Below, one piece after another: positions 1,908-48,344 of a stretch of 64,000 nt of DNA. The stretch comes from Candidatus Magasanikiibacteriota bacterium. Its GTDB lineage: Bacteria > Patescibacteriota > Patescibacteriia > Magasanikbacterales > GWA2-37-8. The notes below the pieces were generated by a model. The model saw nothing but the letters and a program-made list of their open reading frames with translations. It ran no database searches and was not told the DNA's origin. The stretch covers positions 7,333 through 71,332 of the forward strand of contig CAWJAS010000002.1 of NCBI GenBank assembly GCA_963840935.1. Reading direction: 5' to 3'. A program made the position numbers and the translations under genes. Positions within the stretch are counted from its first letter, which is position 1; each line of letters starts with the position of its first letter.

Positions 1908-3190
<1,283 letters not shown>

Positions 3191-16539: not shown

Positions 16540-17121
16540 TCATTTTTTGATTTTAAACGCAACAAAACCGACAATAAATATACCTAGAATCGCCAAAAAA
16601 ACCAGCCCTCCGGTTGTTTTTGTTAATTTGCTTAGAATGGTTGTTTTATTTGTATCCTCATCAGAATCCAATTGATTGCTATGCGAAGAAATAATCTCGG
16701 CAATGGAATCCGGGCAATCTATCATCATACATTCCTTAATTCTATTTTCAATCTGAATCGGGGTCGCAAAATCAGCGTAACCGATAAATGCCTGGTCGCC
16801 AATAAACACAACCGGCACTCCATCAACTCTAACGATTAACTTCCCGGCAATCTCTTTTAGCATGTCGGCATTATTATTACTATTGTATACCTCAAAATCA
16901 TTGATCTTTAAAGCGCGGTATTTTGCCTGCATGTAATCAAGAAATTCCTTTTCTTTTTCACAGTGAGGACACCCATCGCCCCAAAAAAAATAGGCGTTTA
17001 TTTCGGTAACGGCATTGGCCGGTTCTGCAAAAATGAAATTTCCGAATACAAAAATAAAAAACAGCGCCAAAACGGCATTGAATATTTTTTTATAATGGAA
17101 AAAATTTCTGAATTTTAACAT
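16540..17121 (-). CDS. thioredoxin-fold thiol-disulfide oxidoreductase (CPHC motif) with N- and C-terminal TM anchors
   Basis: AYFFWGDGCPHCEKEKEFLDYMQ; start placed at ATG 17121, because the track ORF extension to 17241 runs into repeat R1. Confidence 0.7.
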   Translation of the reverse strand: MLKFRNFFHYKKIFNAVLALFFIFVFGNFIFAEPANAVTEINAYFFWGDGCPHCEKEKEFLDYMQAKYRALKINDFEVYNSNNNADMLKEIAGKLIVRVDGVPVVFIGDQAFIGYADFATPIQIENRIKECMMIDCPDSIAEIISSHSNQLDSDEDTNKTTILSKLTKTTGGLVFLAILGIFIVGFVAFKIKK

Positions 17122-17122
17122 G

Positions 17123-17524
17123 CGGTCGTTTTTGATTGATGTTCGAACTTTTTTTGAGCAAAACCCCCAATAAGGAAGCCAGCCCCGCCACTGCTCGACA
17201 AGCTCGCCACACCACAGAAAAATACTCTTTGCTCTTTTCATTTTGCGCGCGCCCGATTTTTTCTTCTTTTAATGAAAAGAGTATTTTTCTGCGGTGTTCT
17301 GCCCTCCAAGTATTCGGGCAGGTGGCGGGGCTGGCCTCAATTTGATTGAGAAAAGGAAAAGCGGAATTCCCCCCAAACCCCCCTTCCGCTTTTCCTTTTC
17401 TCAAACGGAACGGGAACGGAAGCAGGCGGGCAAAAATTCCTTCCCCCCAACCCCCTTCCTTTTTGCCCGCCTGCTTGGGCTTCGCCCCCAAAACTTTCGG
17501 ACGGACGGATTTTTCGGCGGACAA
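17123..17524. repeat. repeat R1, copy A (~400 bp; ~97% identical inverted copy at 21892..22294)
   Basis: direct comparison of 17123-17524 with the reverse complement of 21892-22294; contains 13-17 bp perfect hairpins with C-rich loops and a ~160 bp nested palindrome. Confidence 0.85.
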
Positions 17525-17525
17525 A

Positions 17526-18140
17526 CTACAAATCAATTAGGGTATTCAAAAATTGCTCACTTCCCCTTTTGTCAATTTTAGTATCAATAGGAGAAAGTAG
17601 CAATTTATGAATAACCTCTCCTTGAAATTGAGTTACACCTCTTGAATTTCTGCCAGACCAATGCTTCAACAAAATAGTTGATTTTAATAGATCGGTTTGA
17701 AACATTGATATAAGAATTTGGTTTATTATTTTGTTCGGCTCTATCCCAATGAAATAAAACATGAAAACTGACTTATCTTTGGCTAGAAATTCAAGAACTT
17801 TATCAATGTTGTACGCTTTCGGATTTGAATTTAATACCATGATTTTTGTCTTTACATCGGTTGCGGTATCAAAGTTATTGAAAATCTTTATATAGTCCCC
17901 AAGATTGTTTTGAGTTTGGAAATTGGGGATTATTCGGTTGCTGTTGTGGAGTGCTTGGACTAAACTCTCACGAAGTTTTTCATCTTCTCCTGCAATTAAA
18001 TACTCAATGATTCTTCCTCGGATATTTACATTCTCAATGAAGCCAGCTATCAGAATTTCAGTTTTGTATTGATTAACCTTTGCGTCTAATTCTGATTTGA
18101 GTTGTAAATAATCCTTTGAATTCAACAAATTCCATTGCAC
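17526..18140 (-). CDS. hypothetical protein, candidate nuclease/specificity component of the adjacent R-M-like operon
   Basis: no recognisable motif; overlaps the upstream ORF by 68 nt in another frame, so may be the C-terminal part of a frameshifted gene. Confidence 0.4.
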   Translation of the reverse strand: MQWNLLNSKDYLQLKSELDAKVNQYKTEILIAGFIENVNIRGRIIEYLIAGEDEKLRESLVQALHNSNRIIPNFQTQNNLGDYIKIFNNFDTATDVKTKIMVLNSNPKAYNIDKVLEFLAKDKSVFMFYFIGIEPNKIINQILISMFQTDLLKSTILLKHWSGRNSRGVTQFQGEVIHKLLLSPIDTKIDKRGSEQFLNTLIDL

Positions 18141-18690
18141 GAGAAGGAGCAGAAAGAATTATGTCTTTTGCCTTTTTTGATACTTCAAACTTTATACCCG
18201 ATGGACTGATATTATTTGTTGCCTCTACTAAACGAGCCAGATTTCCATCAAAACCAAGCTCGGCATGGATACTGAATAACTTCTCAAAATTTTCTGGCGA
18301 ATTAGTAAGGCCATCAAAAGTTTTGACAATATCGGAGCCGTTGATACTGCCCCTTATATTATCTACACGAAGCTGTTGTGAACTATGGCTAACTTTTTGC
18401 AGAAAGGTGCTATTCGCAATGTAAAGTATATTTTTCTTTGGAGTTACTAAACAAACAAAAAATGGTAGGTGGTCATATTTTTGAAGATTTGAAAGTGAAA
18501 TAACTGTATTTGAAAAACCGTTTGAGGAAGAATAACTAAAACGAACGGAGAAATTTTTTGAGTAGTAAACAGACCTGTCTTTTGTCAGATTAAAAGTTTT
18601 TTGAATTTCCTCTACAAGTACGGATTTATTACCAACTCCATCTTTGGAATTTACAAATTCAATAAATGATTTTATTTCTTTATTTATCAT
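18073..18690 (-). CDS. hypothetical protein, candidate restriction endonuclease (N-terminal part?) of the R-M-like operon
   Basis: position immediately downstream of the methyltransferase with a 4-nt overlap; no confident motif. Confidence 0.4.
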   Translation of the reverse strand: MINKEIKSFIEFVNSKDGVGNKSVLVEEIQKTFNLTKDRSVYYSKNFSVRFSYSSSNGFSNTVISLSNLQKYDHLPFFVCLVTPKKNILYIANSTFLQKVSHSSQQLRVDNIRGSINGSDIVKTFDGLTNSPENFEKLFSIHAELGFDGNLARLVEATNNISPSGIKFEVSKKAKDIILSAPSRAMEFVEFKGLFTTQIRIRRKG

Positions 18691-19700
18691 AATAGTTTTT
18701 TGCTAAATAAATCCGTAGAGTTATTTGCTTTTTCTTTTTTTCCGTTCCCATTCATCTGTTCATTAAGAGTGTTTCGTTCCCAAAATACACCATCAGAATA
18801 TCCCTGTATCTCTTTATTATCACCCATTGCTTCAAGGCGTTTTTCTGCAAGACAACAATACTGCTCATCAATCTCTATGCCGACATATCTACGACCAAGT
18901 TTTTTAGCCACCACCGAGGTTGTTCCTGAACCCAAAAATGGATCAAAAACCACATCATTTGGCTTTGAGCTTGCCAAAATGACCTTTGCAACCAATTTTT
19001 CTGGCTTTTGTGTTGGGTGGTCGGTATTTTCTGGCATTGACCAAAATGGAATAGTTATATCAGTCCAAACATTTGATGGAAAGGTTATCCTGTATTTTCC
19101 ATCAGCACTATCTTCCCAATCTTTCGCGTCTCCATTTTGGTCTTTGTATGGTGCGATTACTTTCCGCTTCATCTTTACAGAATCAACATCAAAGTGATAA
19201 TCGTCAGACAATGTGCAAAACCAAATATCTTCTGAGCAATTTTTCCAGTTACTTTTTGCTCCTCGCCCCTTTTCGCGTTCAAAAGTTATGCGATTCTGTA
19301 TTTTGAAATATTTTTTTGCAACATTAAAAATTGCTCCCGAAGATTTCCAATCGCCACAGATATAAATTGAAGCGTTTGGTTTTAATGTACGGATAAGTTT
19401 AGCAACCCACGAATTTAGCCATTCCTCATATTGCTCTGATTTCATTTCCTTAAATGATGTGGCGTTGAATGTTTTGTTGAGATTATACGGAGGATCAACA
19501 AAAACCAAATCAACAAAATTATCGGGTAGATATTCTAATGCCTCAAAAATATCTTGATGAATAGTTTTATTTTCAATATCTTTCAACGAAACTGGTTTGT
19601 TGATTTTGACCAGTCGTTTTTTCAAAACTGAAATTTCATCATCATTCAAATTGATGGTTCTATTTCTTGGTGCTCTTTGTTTTTGTAAAATTTTTGTCAT
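18687..19700 (-). CDS. beta-class N6-adenine/N4-cytosine DNA methyltransferase
   Basis: motif IV DLVFVDPPYN near the N-terminus and motif I VVFDPFLGSGTT near the C-terminus (beta-class order); HPTQKP. Confidence 0.85.
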   Translation of the reverse strand: MTKILQKQRAPRNRTINLNDDEISVLKKRLVKINKPVSLKDIENKTIHQDIFEALEYLPDNFVDLVFVDPPYNLNKTFNATSFKEMKSEQYEEWLNSWVAKLIRTLKPNASIYICGDWKSSGAIFNVAKKYFKIQNRITFEREKGRGAKSNWKNCSEDIWFCTLSDDYHFDVDSVKMKRKVIAPYKDQNGDAKDWEDSADGKYRITFPSNVWTDITIPFWSMPENTDHPTQKPEKLVAKVILASSKPNDVVFDPFLGSGTTSVVAKKLGRRYVGIEIDEQYCCLAEKRLEAMGDNKEIQGYSDGVFWERNTLNEQMNGNGKKEKANNSTDLFSKKLL

Positions 19701-19702
19701 AG

Positions 19703-21529
19703 CTATTTTTCGTTCAACTTATTTTGAAAATACTGCAAACACTCACTTGAAACATCTTTGAGTAACCCGTTCTTTTCAATCCCATCAAAAGCAATATTGT
19801 CAATTGTTTTTCTTTGGTTCTTTTTGATTGATAACTTTTTATTGACCTCTTTACTGACCTTCTTTTTTACCCACGCAAGGTTGGTATAAAGAGGATTAAA
19901 ATTTCGATCGTGTGTTTTTAAGGATAACTTCTTTAGTATATCAACAGTGATACTTTTTTCTTTTTCATTCAGTAAATTACGAGATGCCTTTCTTTTATCA
20001 ACTGGTTTTATTCGTTTTACCTTTTTCCCAACAGATAATTCCGTGTCTTCAACATTTATCCCAAATTTTTCAAAAAAACTCTTCTTTTCTTCTGGCGAAA
20101 GTTGTTTAACTTGCCCCACCAATTTTTCTATTCCGTGTTCTGGTGATAAAAATTGAGACTCGAAATTTACAACATCATCTCCAACTTCTCGAATTGATAA
20201 CTGTTCTTCTTCAGAATCCCTTTTCTCGCCTGACTTGTTTCCGTCTTTGACAAAACTATCGTCCGTATCTTTTTCTGTAAAAAGTTCCTCCAAAAATTTT
20301 TGATCTTCGTAATCAAACATCTTAAATTCTTGGAAGCGTTTAATTTGGTTTAATCCTATATGAGATACAACATAGCAATGGGAAGTTTCATCGTTTCGTC
20401 TAATAACTCGCCCAAGAAATTGAATGTAAGGATTTAAGCTCTTATATGGTCTAAAAATTGCGGCGACTCCAAGTGGTGGGTGATCAAAACCTTCACCAAG
20501 CATACCGATATGAATAATTACTTCAATTTTTCCATACTTCAAATCATCAAAAACTTTGTCATTCGTTGCCACATCTTGGGCATCCGAGCTTACCAGCCCA
20601 ACTTTCAAACCAAGTTTTTCAAAAGCGGGCTTAACAAATTCTCGCGCGTGGCGTTTGCTAATCGCTGAAGCGATTATTTGATGTTTGGTATTTGGAAACT
20701 CTGCTTTTAGTTCCTCTAATTTTTCTTTAGCTTTTTGAGCAATTGAGCCACAGCAATCTGGAGATAATGCGATACCTCTATTGAACCACGCTTCATCTTT
20801 GAGCTCTAAAATTTGTTCGAGAGAATAAATTTTAGAGCCATCGTCAGTAAAAGATAGTTCTACTTCTTGGGGGGAAACATTGATGATTTTTATATTTCGA
20901 ATTACACCATCCTTAATCGCTTCGTGAAAATGGTATTTATAAATAATATTACCCTCAACCTTTTTGCCGTCTGAACGAAAAGGGGTTGCTGTCAGACCAA
21001 TAATTTTTGACTTATCAAAGAACTTAATTATTTCTTGATAAGTATTTGCCTCTTGATGATGTGCTTCGTCAATGATAATTAAATCAACAGCTTCTTTCTC
21101 GTCCTTAAACCATTTTTCTATATCTTGTAACTGCTGATAATTAGCGATCAAAATTTGATGTTCGGCAATATCGCTTTGGCTAACTGTTCCCTCTAGTCTT
21201 AAAACATAGAGTTCAAGCGTACCCAAAGTATTCGTTTCTATCAAACTAAGTTTTTTATAAATATTTCCTGATGTGTTATTTATAATATCTAAATCTGATT
21301 CGATCTGTTTTGCGAGCTTAACATTTGGTGTCAGCACTAAAACTTTTTTCTTGGCTAGACCAAACGGGGCAATTGCAATAAGAGCACTTTTTCCTGTTCC
21401 AGTTGGTAATTGGACAAGTATGCTCCTTTCCGCTTGTGGCTTTGAAAAATGCTCAAGAATTTTGGAATATGCCTCCCTTTGGCATTTTCGTAGCTCATCA
21501 GTTTTAATTTGTTGCGAAAAATTATCCAT
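19703..21529 (-). CDS. SF2 DEAH-box helicase (ResIII / type III restriction res-subunit-like) with no recognisable nuclease domain
   Basis: motif I LPTGTGKS, motif II IIIDEAHH, motif III GLTATP, motif VI FLGRVIRR; lysine-rich C-terminal tail. Confidence 0.85.
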   Translation of the reverse strand: MDNFSQQIKTDELRKCQREAYSKILEHFSKPQAERSILVQLPTGTGKSALIAIAPFGLAKKKVLVLTPNVKLAKQIESDLDIINNTSGNIYKKLSLIETNTLGTLELYVLRLEGTVSQSDIAEHQILIANYQQLQDIEKWFKDEKEAVDLIIIDEAHHQEANTYQEIIKFFDKSKIIGLTATPFRSDGKKVEGNIIYKYHFHEAIKDGVIRNIKIINVSPQEVELSFTDDGSKIYSLEQILELKDEAWFNRGIALSPDCCGSIAQKAKEKLEELKAEFPNTKHQIIASAISKRHAREFVKPAFEKLGLKVGLVSSDAQDVATNDKVFDDLKYGKIEVIIHIGMLGEGFDHPPLGVAAIFRPYKSLNPYIQFLGRVIRRNDETSHCYVVSHIGLNQIKRFQEFKMFDYEDQKFLEELFTEKDTDDSFVKDGNKSGEKRDSEEEQLSIREVGDDVVNFESQFLSPEHGIEKLVGQVKQLSPEEKKSFFEKFGINVEDTELSVGKKVKRIKPVDKRKASRNLLNEKEKSITVDILKKLSLKTHDRNFNPLYTNLAWVKKKVSKEVNKKLSIKKNQRKTIDNIAFDGIEKNGLLKDVSSECLQYFQNKLNEK

Positions 21530-21533
21530 AACT

Positions 21534-21734
21534 TTATTTAAATAATTCCGCCGTCGGTACGCCGAGGGCTTTGGCTATTTTTTCTAATGTGTCCACAGTA
21601 GGATTCGGATTTTCGCCTGTTTCTATCTTAACAACAGTATTTAACGCTAAATCAGCGTCTTTCGAGAGGCGATCTTGCGAGATTCCTTTCTTGATTCGCA
21701 ATTTGCGAATATTTTCACTTACTGAATTTGCCAT
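21534..21734 (-). CDS. XRE-family HTH transcriptional regulator (controller-protein-like)
   Basis: IRKLRIKKGISQDRLSKDADLALNTVVKIETGENPNPTVDTLEKIAKALGV; first gene of the operon. Confidence 0.8.
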   Translation of the reverse strand: MANSVSENIRKLRIKKGISQDRLSKDADLALNTVVKIETGENPNPTVDTLEKIAKALGVPTAELFK

Positions 21735-21764
21735 ATTGTTTTGACTTTGATAAACTATTATAAT

Positions 21765-21792
21765 ATACTACTTATATTGAGTGTATATCAAA
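21765..21792 (-). promoter_or_regulatory. candidate promoter of the XRE-helicase-MTase operon (TTGATA-16-TAGTAT on minus strand)
   Basis: minus strand TTGATAtacactcaatataagTAGTAT upstream of the XRE gene. Confidence 0.3.
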
Positions 21793-21891
21793 TTGCTTAA
21801 TACAATGGTATCAAAAATATTAAAATTTGGCAAACAAAAAGGGAGTTCCTTAAACTTTTCCGCGCACGGGTGGTGGGGCAAGGAAAAGAAA

Positions 21892-22294
21892 TTGTCCGCC
21901 GAAAAATCCGTCCGTCCGAAAAGTTTTGGGGGCGAAGCCCAAGCAGGCGGGCAAAAAGGAAGGGGGTTGGGGGGAAGGAATTTTTGCCCGCCTGCTTCCG
22001 TTCCCGTTCCGTTTGAGCAAAGGAAAAGCGGAAGGGGGGTTTGGGGGGAATTCCGCTTTTCCTTTGCGAAATCAAATTGAGGCCAGCCCCGCCACCTGCC
22101 TGAATACTTGGAAGGCAGAACACCGCAGAAAAATACTCTTTTCATTAAAAGAAGAAAAAATCGGGCGCGCGCAAAATGAAAAGAGCAAAGAGTATTTTTC
22201 TGTGGTGTGGCGAGCTTGTCGAGCAGTGGCGGGGCTGGCTTCCTTATTGGGGGTTTTGCTCAAAAAAAGTTCGAACATCAATCAAAAAACACCG
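21892..22294. repeat. repeat R1, copy B (inverted relative to copy A)
   Basis: the reverse complement matches 17123-17524 with a few substitutions and one indel. Confidence 0.85.
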
Positions 22295-22425
22295 CCAATT
22301 TTCACTTTTTGTGAAATCGTAAGAAGCTGCCTCGGCGCAAAGCGCCTCGGCATGGTATTTTTCCGCTATTTTGAAGGCATTTTTGAAATCCAAAACCAAA
22401 GTGCGGTCGGCAATGCGGAAGTTCG
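22292..22425. repeat. repeat R2, copy A: inverted duplicate of the recombinase 3' end plus tRNA-Ser terminal CCGCCA
   Basis: 22292-22425 equals the reverse complement of 23910-24043 (~95%), including ccgcca that matches the tRNA 3' end; abuts R1 copy B. Confidence 0.85.
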
Positions 22426-22539
22426 CAGAGCGAAGCACTGGCAAAATGAAATTTTGCAAACCAATCTTTTTTCTTTCGCTTTCAGCGAAAGGTTGAGCGT
22501 ATTTTTCTTTGATTGCCCAAAAACTAATTTCAAAACAAT

Positions 22540-24133
<1,594 letters not shown>

Positions 24134-25800: not shown

Positions 25801-26328
25801 CTACGGCAGGAAAAATGATTCGGCGAGGCAGTCCGGCTCACCGTCGTTTTTGAGACAGCAAGCTACGACCGCCGGGTATTCGACGGGGCAAGTCGTGGGG
25901 CTTGAGGTGCAGGGCGGAGTTTCGTCAACTCCGTTCCAGGTGACCGGCGACCAATAGGCACAACCGCTTCCGGAAAAACCGGAACAGCTTCCTTCGTGGT
26001 CCCAGCAAAACAAAATCTGATTGTCTCCGGGTACCGGCACGTCATAGCATTCGTGTGTCTCCAAACCGCAAACCTGATTCGGTTCGCAGTCATCGACCGA
26101 GTAACAAGAGGTGTCGGTGTCGGTGCCTGCATCTGATTCTGAATCGGTCTGGGAATCGGTGTCCGAATCCGTGTCTGAGTCGGTATCGGCGTCGGTGTCG
26201 GAATCCGTGTCAGAATCCGTATCCGCGTCGGTGTCGGCATCCGTGTCGCTACCCGGAAAAAACGGCGACGGACCAGAATCGCACCCGAGAACCGCAAGAA
26301 AACCGAGCAAAACCCCCAAAACCTTCAT
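25801..26328 (-). CDS. secreted lipoprotein with (D-T/S)n acidic dipeptide repeats and Cys-rich C-terminal domain; GC-rich gene
   Basis: MKVLGVLLGFLAVLGC lipobox; SDTDADTDADTDSDTDSDTDADTDSDTDSDTDS; strong SD (AAGGAGG) before ATG 26328; ~58% GC. Confidence 0.75.
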   Translation of the reverse strand: MKVLGVLLGFLAVLGCDSGPSPFFPGSDTDADTDADTDSDTDSDTDADTDSDTDSDTDSQTDSESDAGTDTDTSCYSVDDCEPNQVCGLETHECYDVPVPGDNQILFCWDHEGSCSGFSGSGCAYWSPVTWNGVDETPPCTSSPTTCPVEYPAVVACCLKNDGEPDCLAESFFLP

Positions 26329-26424
26329 GTTTGCCTCCTTTTTCAAAGCCGAGCTGTTGTTGTAAAGAACGCTTGTTCGCGACTTTATACTATACCTCAA
26401 AAACGCATAATTGTCAACGCAAAT

Positions 26425-27135
26425 CTATACTGTCCGGGCCAAAGTAATTGCCCAGATTTTTTTTGCTCCATTTTGCTTTAACACTTTGGCACATTCGAAT
26501 AAAGTCGCGCCGGTAGTAAAAACATCATCAACCAAAAAAATATTTTCCGATGGTTTATCGTCACGCCAATCAAACGCGCCGAATACATTTTCGGCGCGTT
26601 CCAATTTATTTAATTTTGCTTGTTGGGCGGTGGCCCTTTGTCTTATTAATCTATTTTTTAAAACAAAATTTTTATTTCCAATTTCAAGCGACAATTTATC
26701 AACAATAATTTTTGCAATAAGTTCCGATTGGTTATACCCGCGTTCTCTTTCTCGTTTTTTGTGAAGCGGGACGGGAATAACCGACCATTCACCGTTTTCT
26801 CGCGATAATTTAATTATATCTAAAAAATTTTTTTTAATAATTTTTTGCCACAACGATAAAATATCCCGAGTATAATTATATTTAAAATCAGCAATCAATT
26901 TTGCCAAGACCGATTCTTCTTTGTATACAAAAAATGAAAATGATCCATCAAGCGGACATAAATTTTTGCAGACAAGACACGTTTCACCGTTATTTGGCAA
27001 TCCGCAGGAAGGGCATTTTTTTATCGGTTCCAATTGTTCTCGCGCTAAACAATCCGGGCAAAGCCAATCCCCTTCCCGCCCGCATTTTAAACAAAAAATC
27101 GGAAACAATAAATCTTTTATGTATTTAACAAGCAT
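26425..27135 (-). CDS. comFC: ComF family protein (ComFC-like phosphoribosyltransferase-fold competence protein)
   Basis: N-terminal Cys cluster CLKCGREGDWLCPDC...CPSCG...CLVCK; C-terminal PRTase motif IFLVDDVFTTGATL. Confidence 0.85.
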   Translation of the reverse strand: MLVKYIKDLLFPIFCLKCGREGDWLCPDCLAREQLEPIKKCPSCGLPNNGETCLVCKNLCPLDGSFSFFVYKEESVLAKLIADFKYNYTRDILSLWQKIIKKNFLDIIKLSRENGEWSVIPVPLHKKRERERGYNQSELIAKIIVDKLSLEIGNKNFVLKNRLIRQRATAQQAKLNKLERAENVFGAFDWRDDKPSENIFLVDDVFTTGATLFECAKVLKQNGAKKIWAITLARTV

Positions 27136-27196
27136 ATCATAAAGACGCTCATATGAGCGTCTTTTTATTTATAAAAATCTCGCAAACATTATTCTA

Positions 27197-27811
27197 TTAT
27201 TCAAAACTGTCAACAAGCCAAACATCGTTCGTTTTTACGAGTCTGACGGATGTTTTTTCACTTGTTTTTTCCGTGCTTGACCCTCTGGTAACGGTTCGCT
27301 GAACAGACATTTCAACCTTTGCGTTATCTGCAGAAAATTCAACCACATTTATAGCAACAACATTTGTAGTCACGCCAATAAAAGCCGCCGACGGCGGAGT
27401 ACCAATATGCTGGCTAATATCTTGCCACAGAGACATTGTAACAATCGACTGAACGGCGTAAATATTTTCACTGTTATTGTCGGTTGAATAAGTTCCGTAT
27501 CTTTCAATAAATATTTTGGCGGTTTGCTTGGCTGAGTTTTTCATCATTTCTTCGGTTGTCGGCGGTTTAACAGTGGCGCCCGGTGGGATTACCGTCGACG
27601 GTGTCATTATTTGAGACGGAAAATTTGTTTCATCAATTATATTTTCGTTTATCGGCGTCTCTTCGGCTACCGGTTCGCCCGACTTTTTTTTGAAAACAAT
27701 CAAGGAGATGCTAATGGCAAGAATAATAAAAACAGCCAAACTGATAATAATGAATATACGAGCTCGAAGTGTTATCATAATTTTTTTAATCAGCCGGCGC
27801 GACTGGCGCAC
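27197..27811 (-). CDS. hypothetical membrane-anchored protein
   Basis: N-terminal TM helix, no recognisable domain. Confidence 0.5.
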   Translation of the reverse strand: MRQSRRLIKKIMITLRARIFIIISLAVFIILAISISLIVFKKKSGEPVAEETPINENIIDETNFPSQIMTPSTVIPPGATVKPPTTEEMMKNSAKQTAKIFIERYGTYSTDNNSENIYAVQSIVTMSLWQDISQHIGTPPSAAFIGVTTNVVAINVVEFSADNAKVEMSVQRTVTRGSSTEKTSEKTSVRLVKTNDVWLVDSFE

Positions 27812-27820
27812 GGGTCGAAA

Positions 27821-29689
27821 TTATTTATTTGATTCGTCAAATTCTTTTTTGGCTTTTTCAATCGCCAGTAACTGCTCTGGATTGGTGGTAACAATCTGGT
27901 CCTCGGTATATGAAGCGACCACTTTTATGGCGGCATGTTTCAATCCGGCAAAAAATATTCCCTCGCCCACTCCGGACTCCAACAACAAATATTTTTCACT
28001 GTCGGTCAAAACAAAAATTTTCTGAATCAAGTCAATTGAAGCCGGAGATTGCCGCAATAATAATTGCAAAGCGGAATTTGTGACAATCGCCTGACCGTAC
28101 TGCGAACGCAAAAAGTCATTCACATCCTGAGTAATAGTCGTTACGCCCAAATAATATTTTCGGCATCTTTTGACAAGAGAAAAAATAAATCTGGCAGAAT
28201 CTTCATGCATCATCAACCACCAAGCTTCATCAATAACCAAAACTCTTTTCTTGCGTTCCGAACGAACGACATTCCAAATATAATTGACGATTGAATAAAT
28301 GGCAATCGGTCGCAATTCTTCTTCCAAATCGCGAACCGAGTAAATAACCAACTGATTATTCATGTCCACATTTGTTGGAGAATTAAAAAGTCCGGAAAAT
28401 GTGCCCTCGGTATATTTTTGCAGTTTCAAAACCAGCTCTTCACTGCCTTGCATTCCCTCCAAAATTTCTTGCAAATCCTGCACAATCGGCGGTTTAACCG
28501 TGGTTAAATCGGCATCGGGCGTAATATCTTTTTTGGCGTATGTTTCAATGAGCGCTCGGTCAATAATAGCGTCTTGTTCAACCGAAAGACCGCCAAGCAT
28601 GATGCGCAAAAGTCCTTTCATGGTAATAACCGCTCCCCTGATAACGTCTTCAGTGGATATTTCCATTCCAACCGGACGGGGCAAATCAAACGGATTAATT
28701 TTTGCCTCTGACGAAAGAGAAATATTTATATATGTTCCGCCGACCGCGTCGCTCAAATGTTTGTATTCCATTTCCGGGTCAATTACTATCACATCCACGC
28801 CCATCATCATGGTCCGCAAAATCTCCAATTTTATGGCATAACTTTTACCGGCACCCGAGGTGGCAAAAACAACCATATTGGCGTTTTGCAAAGAAAATCT
28901 ATCAAACAAAATCAAACTGTTATTGTGACGATTAATGCCGTAAAGAATTCCGTTGTCAGAGGTAAGCTCGGCCGAAATAAATGGAAACGAAGCGGCAATC
29001 GGCGAGCTGTTCATGTTGAAAGAAATGTACAGTTCATCGTTCCCCAAAGGCAAAGTGGAATTAAAACCCTGTTCGGCCTGATACAAAACCTTGCGAGTAA
29101 TAATTAATTTTCCGCCAAAAATATTTTCTATATCTTCGCTTACTTGATCCAATTTTTCTTTGTCTTTGGCGTAAACGGTGATGTAAAAACAAAATTGAAA
29201 AAAATGTTCCGTTCCTTGGGTGAGATTATCGCGCAGTTGTTCAATGTCGCGCAAGGCGGTTTCACGAATCGGGTCTCGCGGAGCGCCCTTCTCTGTGTCG
29301 GCGTTAATTTGCGCTTCCAACGCGCCCACCTTATTTTTGAGTTGTTTGAGTATTACGGCTGACTTAACCGGATAAAAAAACATGGAAATATCCATGGTGG
29401 TGGATAAATTAATCACCGGAGAAGCCCAACCGATGGAAATATATCGAGGATATGCCGTGACAAAAAGTGTCCGGCAAAAAACATCACCCAATTGAACAAA
29501 ACTCGACTCCACTCGAAAAGCGGACGGAGCGATTATGTCTCTTATGGTAACTACGCCTTCGCGATATATTTTTTCTTCTTCAAGAGTAACCAGTTCCTCG
29601 CCTGTCTTTCTTTGAATTTCAGAAGTCTCCGTTTTTAGACGGCTTGGCTCTTTAGTAATTTCTTTTGAAATTGTAGGTTTAAAAGCCAT
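27821..29689 (-). CDS. VirB4/TrbE-family type IV secretion ATPase (C-terminal ATPase portion)
   Basis: Walker A VFATSGAGKSY; Walker B RVLVIDEAWWLM (DEAW typical of VirB4). Confidence 0.8.
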   Translation of the reverse strand: MAFKPTISKEITKEPSRLKTETSEIQRKTGEELVTLEEEKIYREGVVTIRDIIAPSAFRVESSFVQLGDVFCRTLFVTAYPRYISIGWASPVINLSTTMDISMFFYPVKSAVILKQLKNKVGALEAQINADTEKGAPRDPIRETALRDIEQLRDNLTQGTEHFFQFCFYITVYAKDKEKLDQVSEDIENIFGGKLIITRKVLYQAEQGFNSTLPLGNDELYISFNMNSSPIAASFPFISAELTSDNGILYGINRHNNSLILFDRFSLQNANMVVFATSGAGKSYAIKLEILRTMMMGVDVIVIDPEMEYKHLSDAVGGTYINISLSSEAKINPFDLPRPVGMEISTEDVIRGAVITMKGLLRIMLGGLSVEQDAIIDRALIETYAKKDITPDADLTTVKPPIVQDLQEILEGMQGSEELVLKLQKYTEGTFSGLFNSPTNVDMNNQLVIYSVRDLEEELRPIAIYSIVNYIWNVVRSERKKRVLVIDEAWWLMMHEDSARFIFSLVKRCRKYYLGVTTITQDVNDFLRSQYGQAIVTNSALQLLLRQSPASIDLIQKIFVLTDSEKYLLLESGVGEGIFFAGLKHAAIKVVASYTEDQIVTTNPEQLLAIEKAKKEFDESNK

Positions 29690-29692
29690 ATT

Positions 29693-30379
29693 TTACGCGT
29701 CTTCTAAATTAAAATCCCCCAAAGGAGCAAGCGGTTCCGATAAAGCGATGTCGGGATTAAAAGTTGAATAAAACAATTCTATTAATGATTGTGTGTCAAG
29801 CCGAACCACCTCAAGCCCCATTCCGGTCAATCCAGACTCAACTTGGCGAACGCGCATATCCAAGTCATATTTTCGTTTAAAAAATCTTTCGTCTTTTAAT
29901 TTAATGGTTATGGCCGGATTAAAAACCTCGGAAGCTCTGGACCAAAAACCCTTTTTCTTATTAGTCAACGGGTCATATGGCACAATAACATAAAATTGCT
30001 TGCTCATAATTTTTCCCAAATCAACCAACTCGGAAACAAATGAACGATAATCGGCGATTTGCATGCGCAAAAGTTCATTGGGCTGTTCCCGTTCTTTTTT
30101 GGCCAAATTTTCCAAATATGGGCGAACATTTAACTGGCGTGATTGAATAACAATCTGCAAAGGATGGTCCAAGCTATTCAAAAAAGAAACATAGGAATTA
30201 ATTATCGCCTGCTGTTCATCGTCGTTTTTGAGCGCAAAATTGATGCTTGATACCATCAAGACCGACCTCAAAGTGCCGTCTTTCATCACAATAGTGTCAT
30301 TACGAACTTCGGAGATAGTTAAATTTTTTTGCGCCGACGGCTTATTCGCTCTGGATTGTACGGCTGATTTATTTTTCAT
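29693..30379 (-). CDS. VirB4-like N-terminal domain protein (split T4SS ATPase), hypothetical
   Basis: stop is 3 nt before the VirB4 ATPase start; N-terminal region pattern DGTLRSVLMVSSINFAL...QIVIQSRQLNV resembles VirB4 N-terminal domains. Confidence 0.45.
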   Translation of the reverse strand: MKNKSAVQSRANKPSAQKNLTISEVRNDTIVMKDGTLRSVLMVSSINFALKNDDEQQAIINSYVSFLNSLDHPLQIVIQSRQLNVRPYLENLAKKEREQPNELLRMQIADYRSFVSELVDLGKIMSKQFYVIVPYDPLTNKKKGFWSRASEVFNPAITIKLKDERFFKRKYDLDMRVRQVESGLTGMGLEVVRLDTQSLIELFYSTFNPDIALSEPLAPLGDFNLEDA

Positions 30380-30401
30380 AATTTACCATCTTGAAAATTA
30401 A

Positions 30402-30839
30402 TTATTCTTCCGCTTGATAATAACCGCCGGTATTAACTGTGAGCGACAGATCGCGGATACGGCTGTATGAATACCTTTTGATTGCTACGGCTTTTTCAGG
30501 CACAATCACTCTTCCTTCCCCGCGCAATCTTTTTATGTCTTCCGTGGTATATAATTTGTTCCAAATTCGAAGCGATGGACGACGCAGAGTTTGGATGATA
30601 TTAAGCAAAAAATAATGGAAGGCTTGGCCGTTTATTTTTACAAAAGCGACTACCAATGAGCCACCACCGATAACAATCAACAAAACAACAAACAAGGCGA
30701 AGTCCGCCAATTTGAAAGCGGCAAAAAGTGTTAAACCGGCGGCCAAAAGAATCACAAATTGACGGGCGGTTACCGGCCCAAATATTTTGTCTTCAACATC
30801 GATAAATTGCGGAACAACAAATTGTGATTCAACCGGCAT
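30402..30839 (-). CDS. PrgI-family (VirB3-like) small membrane protein
   Basis: VPQFIDVEDKIFGPVTARQFVILLAAGLTLFAAF plus two TM helices. Confidence 0.5.
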   Translation of the reverse strand: MPVESQFVVPQFIDVEDKIFGPVTARQFVILLAAGLTLFAAFKLADFALFVVLLIVIGGGSLVVAFVKINGQAFHYFLLNIIQTLRRPSLRIWNKLYTTEDIKRLRGEGRVIVPEKAVAIKRYSYSRIRDLSLTVNTGGYYQAEE

Positions 30840-30845
30840 AAAAAA

Positions 30846-31958
30846 TTATAACAAATCTTTTTCCATTTTAATTAAGGCGTTGATTTCATCTATGGATATT
30901 TTCTCGTTTTTGACTCTTTCTGTCAATTTTGATTTTGCGTTCAGAGCTTCAACCGAGGCATTAACATAGTCAATAAAAAGAGGACTCCCTCGCCAAGCTT
31001 CTAGCGCGTTAATAAAAAGCAAATATGATTCTTCTTTCAAATTAATAAACTTCTGTTTTAATCGGGCGGCGGCTTCTTCAGGATTTGTTGATAAACGACG
31101 AAAATCTGTCAATGTAAAAAATCTGATTTCATCAACCGGTCCCAAGTTCATCGGTTTGGCCGGAGTAATATCCTGCATTATCGGACGGGCTTGGCTGTTA
31201 TTTTTTGGCATTATATCCCCGCTTTCAATCACTCTGCCGGGTGAAGAAATATTTTTTGGCGCATGAATAAAAGGATTATTGGGAGTTGATACTGCCGGAA
31301 AAGGTTCACGGTCTTCTTTTGCTAATGCAGTCGGAGTACCAAGTGGTCTTTTGAGTACCGGCACATTCGTTTCAACCGGTTTTTTTCTTTTTTCTTCAAT
31401 TAATTTCAAAACTTTTTCAGTTTGTTCTTTGTTTAACCCGATTCCCATTTGATTTTCCGGCATCATCATCCAGTCGCGAGCTTCGTCTTCCGAGCGAATA
31501 TCTTTCAGACGCAATTGGACAAGACCGATCAAGCGCTTTTCCGTGTTAGGGTTTAATTTCAAACCGGATTTTTGCACAATTTCTTTTGCTTCAACCAAAC
31601 GGTCTTCAGACTTTGATTTGGTCCCACCCGCTGGCATTTCATCTTCCAAAAGGGATTTGGCGTCTTCTTTGCCAAAAGATACACTCGATTTTGGCGCAGG
31701 ACTCTCAATTTTTTTTACTTGCGGAGGAGTCATCGGCAAAATCTTTTTTATTTCCGGTTTTTTGGGTAGAATTTGTTTTGGCGGTTCGATTTTTTTGGGC
31801 GCTTGCGGAATGACGGTCGGTTTTTTTGGCGGTTCAGCCGGTACTGCCGGAACAACGCTCTTTTTCCCGCGAGCGCGAAACTCCTCGAGCGTTATTTTCT
31901 CGATTGTGCCGTCAGAATGTTTAATTGGAATCAAAGTCGCCATAATTATATATTCCAT
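30846..31958 (-). CDS. hypothetical Pro/Lys-rich protein in the T4SS-like cluster
   Basis: PKKPTVIPQAPKKIEPPKQILPKKPEIKK repeats; no domain recognised. Confidence 0.5.
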   Translation of the reverse strand: MEYIIMATLIPIKHSDGTIEKITLEEFRARGKKSVVPAVPAEPPKKPTVIPQAPKKIEPPKQILPKKPEIKKILPMTPPQVKKIESPAPKSSVSFGKEDAKSLLEDEMPAGGTKSKSEDRLVEAKEIVQKSGLKLNPNTEKRLIGLVQLRLKDIRSEDEARDWMMMPENQMGIGLNKEQTEKVLKLIEEKRKKPVETNVPVLKRPLGTPTALAKEDREPFPAVSTPNNPFIHAPKNISSPGRVIESGDIMPKNNSQARPIMQDITPAKPMNLGPVDEIRFFTLTDFRRLSTNPEEAAARLKQKFINLKEESYLLFINALEAWRGSPLFIDYVNASVEALNAKSKLTERVKNEKISIDEINALIKMEKDLL

Positions 31959-33013
31959 TTGAATTTGCCGGACTCTTCATCAAAATAATAAAGCTCGGCG
32001 ATTTTTGGGTCATTGTATTTTTTTGAAGCTTTTTCCAAAGCCATCATCACCGAATCCAAATCTTCATAATTACCATTCGTGTCTTTTTCAAAGACGGCGT
32101 CAATTTTTTGATAAATTTCGGAATATGAGGGTTTAACTAATTCTGGTTGCGAAGAAACATCGGGCATAACTGCGGGAATATTTTTTTGCGCTACAACCGA
32201 TGTAGTTTTGAAAACAGGCGCGAGTTTTACAGGTGTATTACCAATTTTATTTTCACTTAATATCAGTATTGAATTCGGTATTTCAGGCACTTCTGTCGGT
32301 GGGAAACTTTTTTCAAAAGAAGAAATATCAGCCACATATTCTTCTATGTCTTCAATATTGGACCGAGTATAACTCAAAACTTTTACAGCCATTTCCTCCG
32401 GCTTTGTCTCCAAGAAGAATTCTAGCAAATCAAACAATTCAGTATAAAAATCATTTGCTTCCGCCATAAAAAACTCTACAGCGAATTCGTCGTTATCCAA
32501 ATTAATTATTTTTCTTATTTTTTCGATAAACTGCGCCATCTCAATTGAGTCCCTGCCTTTACTGCGAATAAGTTTCATTTCTTGGACTGCGTCAGCTATT
32601 GTGTATTTTTTTTCTTCCCAATACCCGATAATGGCACCGGACTGGAGTAACGCGTCTTTGACTTGAATAAAAAGAGTGCGATACTCGTCAATGCGTATGC
32701 ATTTAGTGTTAAAAAACCAAATAATTTTTAAAAACACATCAAAATTCAAAAATAAAGCTTCGGCAATTTGTTTTTTAATCGCCAATTCGACAAATTCTTC
32801 TTTTGACAACCAAACCAAATCTTCCCATATCATTTCCGTGAGATGAGCAAAATTACCGTACCGGTCAGAATAATCTTCTTCATATGAAGTGGCTGTATAT
32901 TTGCCAAGCAAAGCGATTTTTAATTCGGTTTTTTGCTGTAAATTCAATTTATTAAAAAAATCGCGTTCTTCTTTTAACTTGGCCATGTCAAATTTTATCG
33001 ACACTGCGTTCAT
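31946..33013 (-). CDS. hypothetical protein in the T4SS-like cluster
   Basis: long ORF overlapping its downstream neighbour by 13 nt. Confidence 0.5.
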   Translation of the reverse strand: MNAVSIKFDMAKLKEERDFFNKLNLQQKTELKIALLGKYTATSYEEDYSDRYGNFAHLTEMIWEDLVWLSKEEFVELAIKKQIAEALFLNFDVFLKIIWFFNTKCIRIDEYRTLFIQVKDALLQSGAIIGYWEEKKYTIADAVQEMKLIRSKGRDSIEMAQFIEKIRKIINLDNDEFAVEFFMAEANDFYTELFDLLEFFLETKPEEMAVKVLSYTRSNIEDIEEYVADISSFEKSFPPTEVPEIPNSILILSENKIGNTPVKLAPVFKTTSVVAQKNIPAVMPDVSSQPELVKPSYSEIYQKIDAVFEKDTNGNYEDLDSVMMALEKASKKYNDPKIAELYYFDEESGKFKWNI

Positions 33014-33050
33014 AATTATTAATTACTTTTATATTTCTCAATTTAATACA

Positions 33051-35774
33051 TTAATAATTGGGACTGATAATTGGCTCATATTCTTCACCACCTTGATATT
33101 CATCTATTCTAGAAAATAACGGAACAGGCTCTTTACCTTTAACCGGAACTTTAATACCATCGCCTAATGCATCTTTTATCTTTTCATCAAGACGCGCGAA
33201 CAAGGCTTTCACGCCTTTGTCATTATCCGGATTAGCTTTTATCATACCATTAACAACAAGCTGAAGATTTTGTTTTATTTGGCCCTTTCTCTCGTCACTC
33301 GCCGTTAATACTTCTGAGAATATTTCATTCAAATCAGCGACATCTTGAAACGCGACATTAGCCGCCCGTGGAGGCGTAATTCCTCGATACCTGCTAACCA
33401 AATTATCTCTGGCCGCTTCGCTGTCGCAGCTTAATCTCACTTTGCCATCAGCGTGGTCACGATCAACCATGCCTCTCAAACCTCTCGCCCTACCGGCTGA
33501 AGCTTGGCTGCGCGCTTGTATTACTTTATTCTCGCGAAATCTATTATCATCATCATTGGTTGGGTCAACCAATTTCCAAGAACCATCACGATTTGTCCTC
33601 ATTAAACCGGCAAAAGAAATTGCGCCATTATCGGCCATATTTTCAAAAGAATTTGCGAGCACTGTCATCGCGCCTTCAAATTGTCCTCCCATTTTTGTCT
33701 TTAATTCATCAAACGCAGTTCTGACAGCATCGGTTGAAGCATCGACTTGTCTATCAAGATGAGCCGATAAAAAATCGGCTTGTTGAGCAACAACATCGCC
33801 CGCTTCTCTAACGCCTTGAGTCGGGCTAACAATTGCCATAGCTTTGACACCCAGCGAAGCGCTTCGTGACATAGCCGCCTGCATCATATCAGTCAAATCT
33901 TCAGTCAAAGCCTCTCTCTTTGTTGAGCCAACTTCACTCTGATCGCGCGCTGTCTTAATTCTCTCCATTTCACTTAAAAATAAATCCGCGTTTTGCGTAT
34001 TCCAAAATTCCATATCTTCTTTTTTATGTCTGGCTGCCAAATCTTGGGTATAACGAGTTGTCGCAACACCCCTTCTGTGTTCATACTCAGTATTTCTTGC
34101 TTCAGCCACTCTACCTTGCTCGGCTCGTTCTCCTTCAATTTTTAAACGCGCTGTTTGCGCTTCTCGAAAATACAACCCTTCTTCACCTTTAAACATTCCG
34201 GGTTCTTGCTTGATTAATTTCTCAATGGCTTCGTTAGAACGTTTTGTTTTTACATATTCTTTACCTTTTCCCAACGCCTTAATTTTCGCCTCTAGATAAG
34301 CGGTTTCATCCTTCATTTTGGGCGGAGCGCCAACTGTTGAAGCACCGGTAATTTGTTGTCGCAACTCAATTTGTTTTTTTAATTCATCCATTCTACCTTT
34401 TCTGCCACCAACTTGAAGCCTTTGTCTTATTCCGCCGGCCTTATACCCTCCCATTACTTTTTCATTCCAAAACCCAACTGCTTCGCCTGCTTTCTTTTTC
34501 ATTCTCAAACCCCTTTCTTGCCACGCCTCACCCCCAACAATTGGAGCTTTCATCGCCGCAAACTTACCCGCTTTTTTTGCTCCGCTCACTGCCGCGCGCC
34601 CGGCCGTCCTTGCCCCCCATTTAACCGCTGCCACACCACTCATCATCGCCGCGCCCTTCATGGCAAACGCGCCGGCTTGACCCATAATTTCTGAACCGGC
34701 CGCACCGAGTTTTGTGGCAACTTTAACACCGGCCATAAGCATAAAAAAAGCGATTAGAAAACTGGCCAACTGTTCGCTTTCCAAAAATTTATTCAAATTA
34801 GACCCGCCCTCCTCCTCGCCTTCTCGTGAAACAGTTTCCATCTCTGCCTTGTAATTATCGCCCATCGGGTATGAGCTTTCAGCAAACTCACTATGCGCCA
34901 TTCCCCCGCCGGCCACGGCAAAAGCCAACCATAAGAAAAAAGCCAAAACCGGTCCGATAATAACGTTATTGGAAAATTCACTCCACCATTGACTGGAATA
35001 TGTTTGAAATTTTGGAATAATTCCAAGGATAAAAGCAAGGGGAGAAAGTATTATTAAAATCCACAAAGCAATTACGCGCGATAAAAGAACGATTAAATAA
35101 CCACCCATAACCAACATGGTGCCAAAAGCAAAAATCATTGCCATCATGGCCGAGGCCACCATATTCCCGGAACTCATTTCTGTTGGACTGACATTTTTAG
35201 AAAAAGAAACTATGTCGTTTAATTGCAAGGCATTGAATATATTGCCACCGGCTGTAGCCGCGACTCCACTAATAAAAGTCATCATAAAAACCTGCGCCGC
35301 ATCAATTATCACTCCGCAAATTACGCGTGAAAAATTAACCAAAATTGCGGCCAGCACAAATTTTACCAATAATTTTTTCCATTCATATTGCTCAATGCCA
35401 AGAACCGTGACAAACGCGATAAGCATTAAAATGATTACAAAAAACATGTTCGTGATATCGCGCACCAAAATCCAACCCAAACCCACCGCGTTTGAATTAA
35501 TATAACCGTTGTAACTGGCAATTTCTATGACAAATTTCAAAATAAAAATAGTCAAACCCATGAACTTTGAAGCAATCCACAAAAACAAATCACCAATAGC
35601 CATTAATATTGAATCACCTATACTGCCGTCTTCGCCACGCGCAATATCTCCGACAACAAAAAGGAAGAAAAGGCAAAGGCCGGCAACAAAAATTCCGGAC
35701 ATCAAACCCAGCCGAGTTTTCGGTTTGATTATATTCAAAAATTGTTTTCCCTTCTGAACCAGGGAATTTACCAT
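33051..35774 (-). CDS. large polytopic membrane protein (VirB6/TrbL-like channel candidate) with coiled-coil C-terminal region
   Basis: ~10 TM helices in the first 450 aa, then charged coiled-coil; start at ATG 35774 downstream of TTGTGC-17-TGTGGTATAAT. Confidence 0.55.
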   Translation of the reverse strand: MVNSLVQKGKQFLNIIKPKTRLGLMSGIFVAGLCLFFLFVVGDIARGEDGSIGDSILMAIGDLFLWIASKFMGLTIFILKFVIEIASYNGYINSNAVGLGWILVRDITNMFFVIILMLIAFVTVLGIEQYEWKKLLVKFVLAAILVNFSRVICGVIIDAAQVFMMTFISGVAATAGGNIFNALQLNDIVSFSKNVSPTEMSSGNMVASAMMAMIFAFGTMLVMGGYLIVLLSRVIALWILIILSPLAFILGIIPKFQTYSSQWWSEFSNNVIIGPVLAFFLWLAFAVAGGGMAHSEFAESSYPMGDNYKAEMETVSREGEEEGGSNLNKFLESEQLASFLIAFFMLMAGVKVATKLGAAGSEIMGQAGAFAMKGAAMMSGVAAVKWGARTAGRAAVSGAKKAGKFAAMKAPIVGGEAWQERGLRMKKKAGEAVGFWNEKVMGGYKAGGIRQRLQVGGRKGRMDELKKQIELRQQITGASTVGAPPKMKDETAYLEAKIKALGKGKEYVKTKRSNEAIEKLIKQEPGMFKGEEGLYFREAQTARLKIEGERAEQGRVAEARNTEYEHRRGVATTRYTQDLAARHKKEDMEFWNTQNADLFLSEMERIKTARDQSEVGSTKREALTEDLTDMMQAAMSRSASLGVKAMAIVSPTQGVREAGDVVAQQADFLSAHLDRQVDASTDAVRTAFDELKTKMGGQFEGAMTVLANSFENMADNGAISFAGLMRTNRDGSWKLVDPTNDDDNRFRENKVIQARSQASAGRARGLRGMVDRDHADGKVRLSCDSEAARDNLVSRYRGITPPRAANVAFQDVADLNEIFSEVLTASDERKGQIKQNLQLVVNGMIKANPDNDKGVKALFARLDEKIKDALGDGIKVPVKGKEPVPLFSRIDEYQGGEEYEPIISPNY

Positions 35775-35913
35775 ATAATCTTTATTTGCATAGATTACTT
35801 TAATATTATACCACATAATAACAGCGCGCACAAAGTAAAATATGACGCATTTTTATCCACAGAAATTTAGTATTTTATTTATAAAAAATAATTATTATTG
35901 CGAGGGCTGACTA

Positions 35914-48200: not shown

Positions 48201-48222
48201 GATAAATGTTTTATATTTTTTA

Positions 48223-48336: not shown

Positions 48337-48344
48337 TAAAAAAA

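Follow-up and report, generated by a model that had tools for sequence, protein, structure and literature searches.

The Locus Contains Two Repeat-Bounded Modules Next to a tRNA-Ser Gene

We analyzed a 64,000-nt stretch of DNA from a Candidatus Magasanikiibacteriota bacterium (assembly GCA_963840935.1, contig CAWJAS010000002.1, positions 7,333 to 71,332), hereafter called the window, in which a first-pass annotation, made from the sequence alone, had pointed to a tight minus-strand operon as a mobile or invertible, possibly novel defense module resembling restriction-modification (R-M) systems. As can be seen in Table 1, the gene row is as described, with genes for an XRE-family regulator, a superfamily 2 (SF2) DEAH helicase, a DNA methyltransferase (MTase), and two proteins of ~205 aa, but only one gene pair overlaps by 4 nt, as had been stated for the operon as a whole, the remaining junctions being gaps of 2-4 nt. 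A serine recombinase (SR), recognizable by its Pfam domains, and a tRNA-Ser(GCT) gene indeed lie alongside.

The operon is bracketed by two long inverted repeats (IRs), arm a on the left and its inverted copy a′ on the right. Positions 17122-17497 and 21920-22295 (376 nt) are 98% identical and, beyond a 1-nt indel, positions 17485-17524 and 21892-21931 are 93% identical, which gives ~403 nt per arm at 97-98% identity, in agreement with the ~400 bp and 97% first reported. The outer end of the left arm begins with GCGG, while its inner end adjoins the stop codon of the last gene of the operon, and no third copy of a was found within the 64-kb window. Two features had not been noticed before: the SR gene is split by a frameshift, and it is surrounded by a second IR, b, of 134 nt (98% identity). 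In our reading, which we regard as probable, window positions 17122-24043 hold an integrated island, now decaying, that measures ~6.9 kb and lies where the tRNA-Ser gene ends (3′). It would be composed of two IR-bounded modules, one flanked by a and holding a controller-type type II R-M system with an inserted portable translocase, the other flanked by b and holding the SR gene.

Table 1. Features of the island and its borders (window coordinates; ORF, open reading frame)
Feature	Position	Strand	Basis
Host gene, thioredoxin/glutaredoxin-like membrane protein (trx)	16540-17121	-	ORF, sequence; Pfam Glutaredoxin 4e-6
IR arm a, left copy; structured, GC-rich, 403 nt	17122-17524	.	Repeat comparison, fold, covariation
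C-terminal half of type II restriction endonuclease, pseudogene fragment	17526-18140	-	PADLOC profile
N-terminal half of the same restriction endonuclease	18073-18690	-	PADLOC profile, alignment to L208/L207
Beta-class N6/N4 DNA methyltransferase, 337 aa, intact	18687-19700	-	Pfam, PADLOC
SF2 DEAH helicase/translocase, 608 aa (IIIDEAHHQ), no nuclease domain, putative optional accessory cargo	19703-21529	-	Pfam
XRE-family helix-turn-helix (HTH) protein, 66 aa, controller (C) protein-like	21534-21734	-	Pfam, PADLOC
Unique leader between arm a′ and XRE gene, promoter-like site inside	21735-21891	-	Sequence
IR arm a, right copy, inverted (a′)	21892-22295	.	Repeat comparison
IR arm b′, inverted copy of recombinase 3′ end	22292-22425	.	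Repeat comparison
Large serine recombinase (SR), split ORFs 22540-22893 and 22841-24097	22540-24097	+	Pfam, L146 homologue
IR arm b	23910-24043	.	Repeat comparison
tRNA-Ser(GCT), proposed integration target	24038-24133	-	ARAGORN; Rfam tRNA 60 bits

The Operon Core Matches a Type II System With a Broken Nuclease Gene

The two ~205-aa proteins, in which no motif had been recognized, are the halves of a single restriction endonuclease (REase). The upstream ORF corresponds to positions 3-188 of the 384-position PADLOC profile REase_II PDLC03461 (E 4e-72) and the downstream ORF to positions 186-382 (E 5e-73), the two overlapping by 68 nt in different frames. Alignment with the intact genes of two other loci, L208 and L207, opens one 1-nt gap and places the frameshift at a single extra T near 18120 (GAATTC vs. 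GAATC). When the halves were fused and used as a query, we retrieved 3,585 homologues, in which intact proteins of 385-387 aa are 92-94% identical to the query and are all annotated as hypothetical. A sequence search of the PDB with the fused REase gave no match, and Pfam likewise gave none for its nuclease fold.

The other core genes agree with this assignment. The MTase is, as first annotated, a 337-aa beta-class enzyme, with DPPY preceding FxGxG in its translation; it matches Pfam N6_N4_Mtase (1e-45) and PADLOC MTase_II PDLC03371 (1e-70), its best PADLOC scores are those of type II models, and its length is identical to that of its counterparts in L207 and L208. The XRE regulator is confirmed by Pfam HTH_3 (2e-14) and matches PADLOC Control_protein (4e-11), with capH and HTH_VI scoring equally. 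In the leader upstream of it, a promoter-like TTGATA-18-TATATT (21791-21762) is overlapped by the dyad ATATAC-N14-GTATAT, a predicted site and dyad that may serve as promoter and operator, and the 50-60 nt of the leader that adjoin a′ are conserved in other cassettes.

Since the REase halves form one profile, the MTase fits type II models, and the XRE protein is controller-like, the core has, judged by its sequence, the standard C-M-R layout of type II systems (XRE/C, beta-class MTase, and one REase of ~387 aa), with a nuclease that has been inactivated. Two features of a type II system are present, namely an MTase with catalytic and S-adenosylmethionine (AdoMet) motifs and a single-polypeptide REase of a recognized family, though the latter is a pseudogene. 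The cassette is therefore predicted to be able to methylate at present but not to cut.

Type III was considered and rejected: the helicase has no nuclease and ends in a helical bundle, the MTase has only 337 aa, and type II models score best. Signature proteins of DISARM (DrmA/DrmB), BREX (PglZ/PglX), Hna (the helicase-nuclease), and Hachiman (HamA/HamB) were not found. The first-pass annotation was thus right to set aside type III, BREX, and DISARM, but its exclusion of type II does not hold, as the REase halves match a type II profile and C-M-R exists without a helicase in L207. Its proposal of a novel module fails as well: both unassigned proteins belong to one known type II REase family, the very outcome that it had named as contrary to novelty, and the helicase is both dispensable (L207) and common to unrelated R-M systems (type III in L007).

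In L207, taken from a 126-kb contig, an XRE-M-R set without helicase has an M-R pair 89% identical to that of the window at the nucleotide level, and L208 holds helicase-M-R with an intact REase (90% nucleotide identity to the window). The helicase-free set of L207 (6706-8297) has no a arms and adjoins a decayed serine recombinase remnant (75-82% nucleotide identity to the window SR) and a tRNA-Ala gene.

The Helicase Is Probably a Traveling Accessory

The 608-aa helicase was correctly described as an SF2 DEAH protein of the ResIII type without a nuclease domain. Its only Pfam matches are ResIII, DEAD, and Helicase_C, and its AlphaFold model shows, besides two RecA lobes, a linker that is disordered and, at the C terminus, a helical bundle predicted with confidence, but no nuclease. 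This model has a pLDDT of 79; an initial model built from 20 sequences (pLDDT 63) was set aside as poor. The helicase core is closest to HsdR and RadD, and its matches in PADLOC are confined to the core motor (PbeA 2e-21, mREase_IV 2e-19). Hna, an 845-aa DinG-like helicase with a nuclease (PMC13381803), was rejected as an identity because it differs in fold class and carries a nuclease. An exact-protein look-up returned no match. The family has more than 1,500 members, and ~600-aa homologues 50-60% identical to the window protein occur in Patescibacteria, Nanoarchaeota, Leptospiria, and Enterobacteria.

In L001, L002, and L007, the last a contig from a Roizmanbacteria metagenome-assembled genome (MAG), the XRE and helicase genes are 94-96% identical in nucleotides to those of the window, the homology ends at 19681, i.e., at the start of the MTase gene, and a type III pair follows, composed of a 579-aa Mod and a 778-aa Res with its own motor and a PD-ExK-like C terminus. 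In one-genome-per-species contigs, close family members adjoin a C5-MTase together with REase_II PDLC03500 (L008; fused in L014) or PDLC03563 (L020), a type II MTase (L016), or Vsr (L015). A Peribacteria MAG (L009, 14-4879) has the helicase between an HsdM/S-like fusion and the PADLOC candidate PDC-S54 (E 2e-81), the three genes being closely spaced and co-directional. P4-like satellites hold a solitary relative in L004 and L017, with the Psu/Delta genes on one side and the integrase on the other.

Distant relatives (~33% identity) are mostly solitary, paired with an ORF of ~70-110 aa, or adjacent to plasmid rep genes. Those in L209 (NZ_CP039506.1, 914-2692), L210 (NZ_CP059552.1), and L054-L072 are 31-33% identical; on 5.9-kb MOBP plasmids of Salmonella they overlap the end of the rep gene and are followed by the ~70-110-aa ORF. 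Matches found by tblastn also lie on ~6-kb plasmids of Klebsiella and Serratia, the pair of helicase and small ORF recurs in Bacillales, and a copy on an Acinetobacter plasmid adjoins a BsuBI/PstI R-M system. Because these distant relatives mostly have no R-M neighbors, the link to R-M is limited to the close family (≥47% identity).

These contexts bear on the view that all five genes make up a single new R-M-like system dependent on the helicase, with the latter as the motor subunit that the nuclease cannot do without, in the manner of H.CglI and R.CglI. The helicase gene is co-operonic, 2-4 nt from its neighbors, its family is repeatedly found in operons with R-M genes, and type II-like enzymes that need a DEAD helicase subunit are known, such as CglI and NgoAVII (PMC4267653, PMC5861437). 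However, L207 holds the same M-R pair and an XRE gene without it, the same helicase (96% nucleotide identity) precedes a complete type III system endowed with its own Res motor, its partners come from at least three unrelated REase families, and it is solitary in P4-like satellites. We consequently find a subunit role improbable. Most likely, the helicase acts on its own as an accessory and moves along with R-M systems, an optional and portable cargo that would have been recombined in between C and M. As to its activity, we favor a nuclease-less, restriction-type (HsdR-like) double-stranded DNA translocase with a predicted autonomous role in accessory defense.

Arm a Belongs to a Family of Structured Repeats That Flank Variable Cargo

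A 21-mer scan of metagenome contigs for arm a matched at least 120 contigs, some of them from groundwater datasets, Hainich among these (contigs named "Hain-"). Full-length copies share 85-97% identity, and the part most commonly found is a 67-nt core hairpin. The outer boundary, GCGG, is sharp and most often preceded by TG or TTG. Among the matches listed, 22 contigs have two copies, invariably head-to-head and separated by 2-10 kb, never in direct orientation. An XRE homologue lies just inside one arm and in the same orientation, at a distance of 105-215 nt (median 177), for 45 of the 59 XRE hits among the matches listed, and at the opposite arm the final cargo gene as a rule stops right at the inner edge.

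What lies between the arms varies. The cargo of 25 cassettes consists mostly of R-M genes (N6_N4 MTase, 14 proteins; type III Mod, 9; ResIII, 8), together with D12, N6_Mtase, Eco57I/MmeI, an EcoRI-like methylase, GmrSD, and a C5 MTase. Since in L127 an XRE protein 97% identical to that of the window precedes quite different cargo, the XRE gene and the arms behave as a constant platform.

Could the repeats be chimeric or duplicated joins made during assembly? The palindromic ends of L144 and L189 do resemble graph mis-walks, and many contigs break inside a. Yet the two arms of the window are not identical (2-3% of positions differ, and there is one indel), assemblies made independently (JGI, ENA, Logan, and NCBI MAGs) show cassettes with the same arms at their ends, and every paired case listed is head-to-head. 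We therefore give this explanation, which the first-pass annotation had raised against itself, hardly any credence.

The arm is highly structured. Its predicted fold is far more stable than those of shuffled sequences (z = -8.6), and among the 69 pairs of its four helices, 18 have changed on both sides in an alignment of 26 copies, against 6.9 ± 1.7 in shuffles (0 of 500 reach 18) and 1-4 in slid controls. As many as 98.4% of the cells of the alignment pair, and the apical loops are invariant and C-rich (CCCCCCAAACCCCCC, CCCCCCAACCCCC). One expects such a pattern of structured RNA, or of DNA whose function requires folding, and not of a plain protein-binding site. Counts of G-U vs. A-C pairs favor neither strand once peripheral pairs are excluded, the RNAalifold structure being biased to the folded strand. 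Searches of Rfam with the IR and with the whole window gave no family for a, with nothing at gathering thresholds and nothing beyond chance at E ≤ 1. Scans of IMG/VR for both a and the helicase family were empty, which lends no support to a phage origin.

A different role for a could follow from this structure, that of an RNA gene or cis-regulatory RNA (insulator, leader, or antisense) that flanks cassettes to control their expression rather than to recombine, its C-rich loops binding G-rich or Shine-Dalgarno-like sequences. The 18 of 69 compensatory pairs, the invariant loops, the fold z-score, and the fixed orientation relative to XRE all speak for it. Conversely, a holds no conserved promoter, the promoter-like site of the operon lies downstream of it, its strand is not assignable from the pair counts, and it belongs to no Rfam family; an RNA role also leaves unexplained the sharp GCGG boundary and the presence of TTGGCGG at the junction of b with a as at the junction of SR with the tRNA gene. 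We regard an RNA as the primary function of a as possible but doubtful, and it would be compatible with the island that we propose.

At the left border, the ATG (17121) of the trx/glutaredoxin-like gene (minus-strand frame 16540-17241) adjoins the outer end of a, and the frame extends 120 nt into the arm. Because of this position, the promoter and ribosome binding site of trx must lie inside a. Other assemblies of the trx gene break exactly at its start.

The Recombinase Gene Is Found in Both Orientations at the End of tRNA-Ser Genes

The SR encoded across the two ORFs shows the three domains by which large serine recombinases are recognized: catalytic (Pfam Resolvase, 5e-16), recombinase (Recombinase, 1e-16), and zinc ribbon (Zn_ribbon_recom, 1e-8). 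Its frameshift is an extra G near 22841. The homologue in L146, which is 96% identical, is intact and in-frame with 516 aa, and the SR segments lie in one frame at every locus where both were recovered (L104, L144, L146, and others). Other window genes are long and intact, including ORFs of 2758, 1018, and 926 aa, which makes it more likely that the frameshifts in the REase and SR genes are real than that they are sequencing noise. With nuclease and recombinase both apparently dead in this copy, methylation would be possible, but restriction and mobility are unlikely. SR homologues lie just outside one arm in 18 of the contigs with a, among the matches listed.

Arm b is the 3′ end of the SR gene itself (its last ~45 conserved codons), and b′ is an inverted copy of it placed upstream. 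The arms a′ and b′ form one 534-nt block (21892-22425), which on the opposite strand reads as b followed by a, the two sharing 4 nt (CCGC). The left end of the island is the a that adjoins the trx start codon and its right end is b, whose terminal TGGCGG is the CCGCCA 3′ end of the tRNA-Ser gene. The a′-b′ block thus corresponds to the two ends of the island joined, and fits a circle with two inverted (b+a) repeats that integrated through the a|b core of one of them. The TTGGCGG end of b adjoins tRNA-Ser genes of three anticodons (GCT in the window, GGA in L146, and, as read by eye from the sequence, UGA in L133), and it adjoins a in at least 12 loci. No target-site duplications were seen by eye at the arm ends.

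Window positions 22292-24043 align with L146, taken from a 543-kb contig, in inverted orientation at 94.3% identity over 1752 nt, while the flanks (21908-22425 and 23910-24069) are colinear. Because of this inversion between colinear flanks, the SR segment exists in both orientations. The last ~20 residues of SR depend on orientation (window 24040-24097, L146 2607-2660): the window copy reads into the tRNA gene (..ENWRRGRDSNPRC..), and the inverted L146 copy into a (..ENWRCFLIDVRTFFEQNPQ). We had considered L146 as an "empty" platform and rejected this, as a cargo gene ends at the inner boundary of its a. The cargo, too, occurs both ways, with XRE proximal to SR in the window, L193, L204, L166, and L157, and distal in L162 and L183.

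Is the segment between a and a′ then a phase-variation switch, or inverton, by which the neighboring SR controls expression of the R-M operon or of trx through flipping? An IR-bounded segment does adjoin a recombinase, the cargo is known in both orientations relative to SR, and the trx ATG adjoins an arm. Nevertheless, the promoter-like region of the operon lies inside the segment and flips along with it, inversion between identical arms leaves both junctions unchanged, the arms have 400 nt where 10-30 nt are typical of invertons, and the SR is a large integrase-type enzyme adjoining a tRNA gene. A switch of this kind strikes us as quite unlikely.

We propose instead that the island derives from a circular element in which two inverted (b+a) repeats of ~537 nt would part an arc with the SR gene from an arc with the cargo. 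The recombinase would cross over at the TTGGCGG core of one repeat to integrate the circle into the CCGCCA end of the tRNA-Ser gene, each arc could flip between its repeats, and the conserved arms would allow different R-M cargo to be swapped among genomes. These steps of integration, flipping, and exchange through the arms are what we infer from the sequences compared. That the module is mobile or invertible, as first suggested, is supported by the paired arms, always head-to-head around swapped cargo among the matches listed, by the inverted SR of L146, and by the position at the tRNA-Ser 3′ end.

Several points weigh against this account. We saw no empty site, circular junction, or read-level isomer, and a look-up of a flanking host gene gave only contigs that break at the boundary of trx and a. 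Short-read assemblers may orient IR-bounded segments arbitrarily, and the palindromic L144 and L189 look like such artifacts. In L188 and L099, a lies 15-38 nt outside the tRNA-Ser gene, off the CCGCCA core. Homologous recombination between 400-nt arms would give the same products as an SR that acted on a. Contigs with the core hairpin alone also carry housekeeping genes, so the hairpin by itself may be a more general element, and the covarying stems and invariant C-rich loops of a suit a role as RNA or folded DNA outside recombination. As to the cargo, the XRE protein resembles C proteins by family and is a putative C protein, and the distant helicase relatives that adjoin rep genes hint at a role in the maintenance or replication of elements.

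Carried to its full extent, our account would make the (b+a) block the IR of a 2-micron-like flip-flop element driven by a large serine recombinase, a a new type of covarying arm that forms an orientation-independent slot for the exchange of defense cassettes in bacteria of the Candidate Phyla Radiation (CPR), and the helicase an uncharacterized family of nuclease-less HsdR-like translocases, generic boosters for all R-M types. We advance this wider picture tentatively, as a speculation with the odds against it.

Other Features of the Window

Outside the island, the 16S rRNA gene (1852-3183, minus strand) matches its model in two pieces (model positions 9-873 and 929-1335) separated by a 55-nt gap, and the 3′ 200 nt of the model are unmatched; the gene may be interrupted or truncated, as rRNA genes of CPR bacteria often are. 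A pair of small paralogous ORFs, both GC-rich and with Asp-Thr/Asp-Ser repeats (25801-26400, minus strand; 36071-36649, plus strand) flank a ~10-kb block of minus-strand genes (26425-35831) and contain an inverted repeat of 100-144 nt (26110-26255 and 36155-36300, 74-84% identity). The 2758-aa ORF (37017-45293, minus strand) has a signal-like N-terminal sequence. Between 46901 and 50359, a 134-nt intergenic repeat occurs in four direct copies that are 85-92% identical, one of which holds a 41-nt internal inverted repeat (48204-48355).

Significance and Comparison With Known Systems

The analysis removes a false lead, as the operon is no new restriction mechanism, and interest now rests on the platform and on the helicase family rather than on the operon as first described. 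The platform recurs, with structured arms of 400 nt that are conserved, an XRE gene that stays constant, and, at tRNA-Ser, an SR gene able to invert itself. With this architecture, groundwater bacteria of reduced genome size seem to keep R-M systems and to exchange them. Should the arms serve as substrates of recombination, the platform would be nature's counterpart of recombinase-mediated cassette exchange, and it might be of use as a tool in organisms for which genetic methods are still lacking. The helicase family, ranging from CPR bacteria to Enterobacteria and tightly linked to all types of R-M genes, is a candidate restriction accessory. We found no literature on such an element in CPR/Patescibacteria, and a slot made of two inverted structured repeats and a flippable SR gene at tRNA-Ser, widespread in ultra-small groundwater bacteria, is apparently undescribed.

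Among known systems, the operon is closest in its core to C-M-R type II operons with control of the PvuII/Esp1396I type. Like them, it begins with a small HTH gene; next come an amino-MTase of the beta class and one REase of ~387 aa, whose type II family derives from REBASE, and the operon is tight, with a dyad over the promoter-like site. Unlike them, it has a 608-aa helicase gene between C and M and a frameshifted REase, and its XRE gene tracks the IR arm and not a particular R-M system, being 97% identical in L127.

As a whole, the proposed element recalls the yeast 2-micron circle and plastid-type flip-flop, in which two long inverted repeats separate two unique arcs and the isomers differ by arc orientation. 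In both the 2-micron circle and the island, one arc encodes a site-specific recombinase, but the 2-micron enzyme, FLP, is a tyrosine recombinase and that of the island a serine recombinase, and the element has been seen only integrated in bacterial chromosomes, so that its circular form and flipping are conjectural. It also resembles the staphylococcal cassette chromosome (SCC) elements with CcrAB or CcrC, which combine a large serine recombinase, site-specific insertion at the 3′ end of a conserved gene, and variable cargo that includes R-M genes. It differs from them in its target (tRNA-Ser and not rlmH), its long structured arms, its invertible recombinase gene, and its CPR hosts, and the NCBIfam scores of SR for CcrB (63 bits) and XisF (68 bits) are both far below cut-off.

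With the ATP-dependent CglI and NgoAVII enzymes, made of R and H subunits (PMC5861437), the cassette shares a type II-like R-M operon that includes a nuclease-less SF2 helicase-like gene. Transposon-like R-M units with long inverted repeats, and units of R-M genes and an integrase in tRNA genes, were described by Furuta, Abe & Kobayashi 2010 (PMC2853133). As in those units, R-M genes lie here between imperfect inverted repeats, an R-M and integrase unit sits at a tRNA gene, and cargo or components are substituted. The island differs from them in that no target-site duplication was seen and its partner is a self-invertible serine recombinase with an IR of its own. Its arms, moreover, are 403 nt long instead of 26-65 nt and have a covarying secondary structure, and a single arm family, with a constant XRE partner, is reused by more than 100 cassettes with differing cargo.

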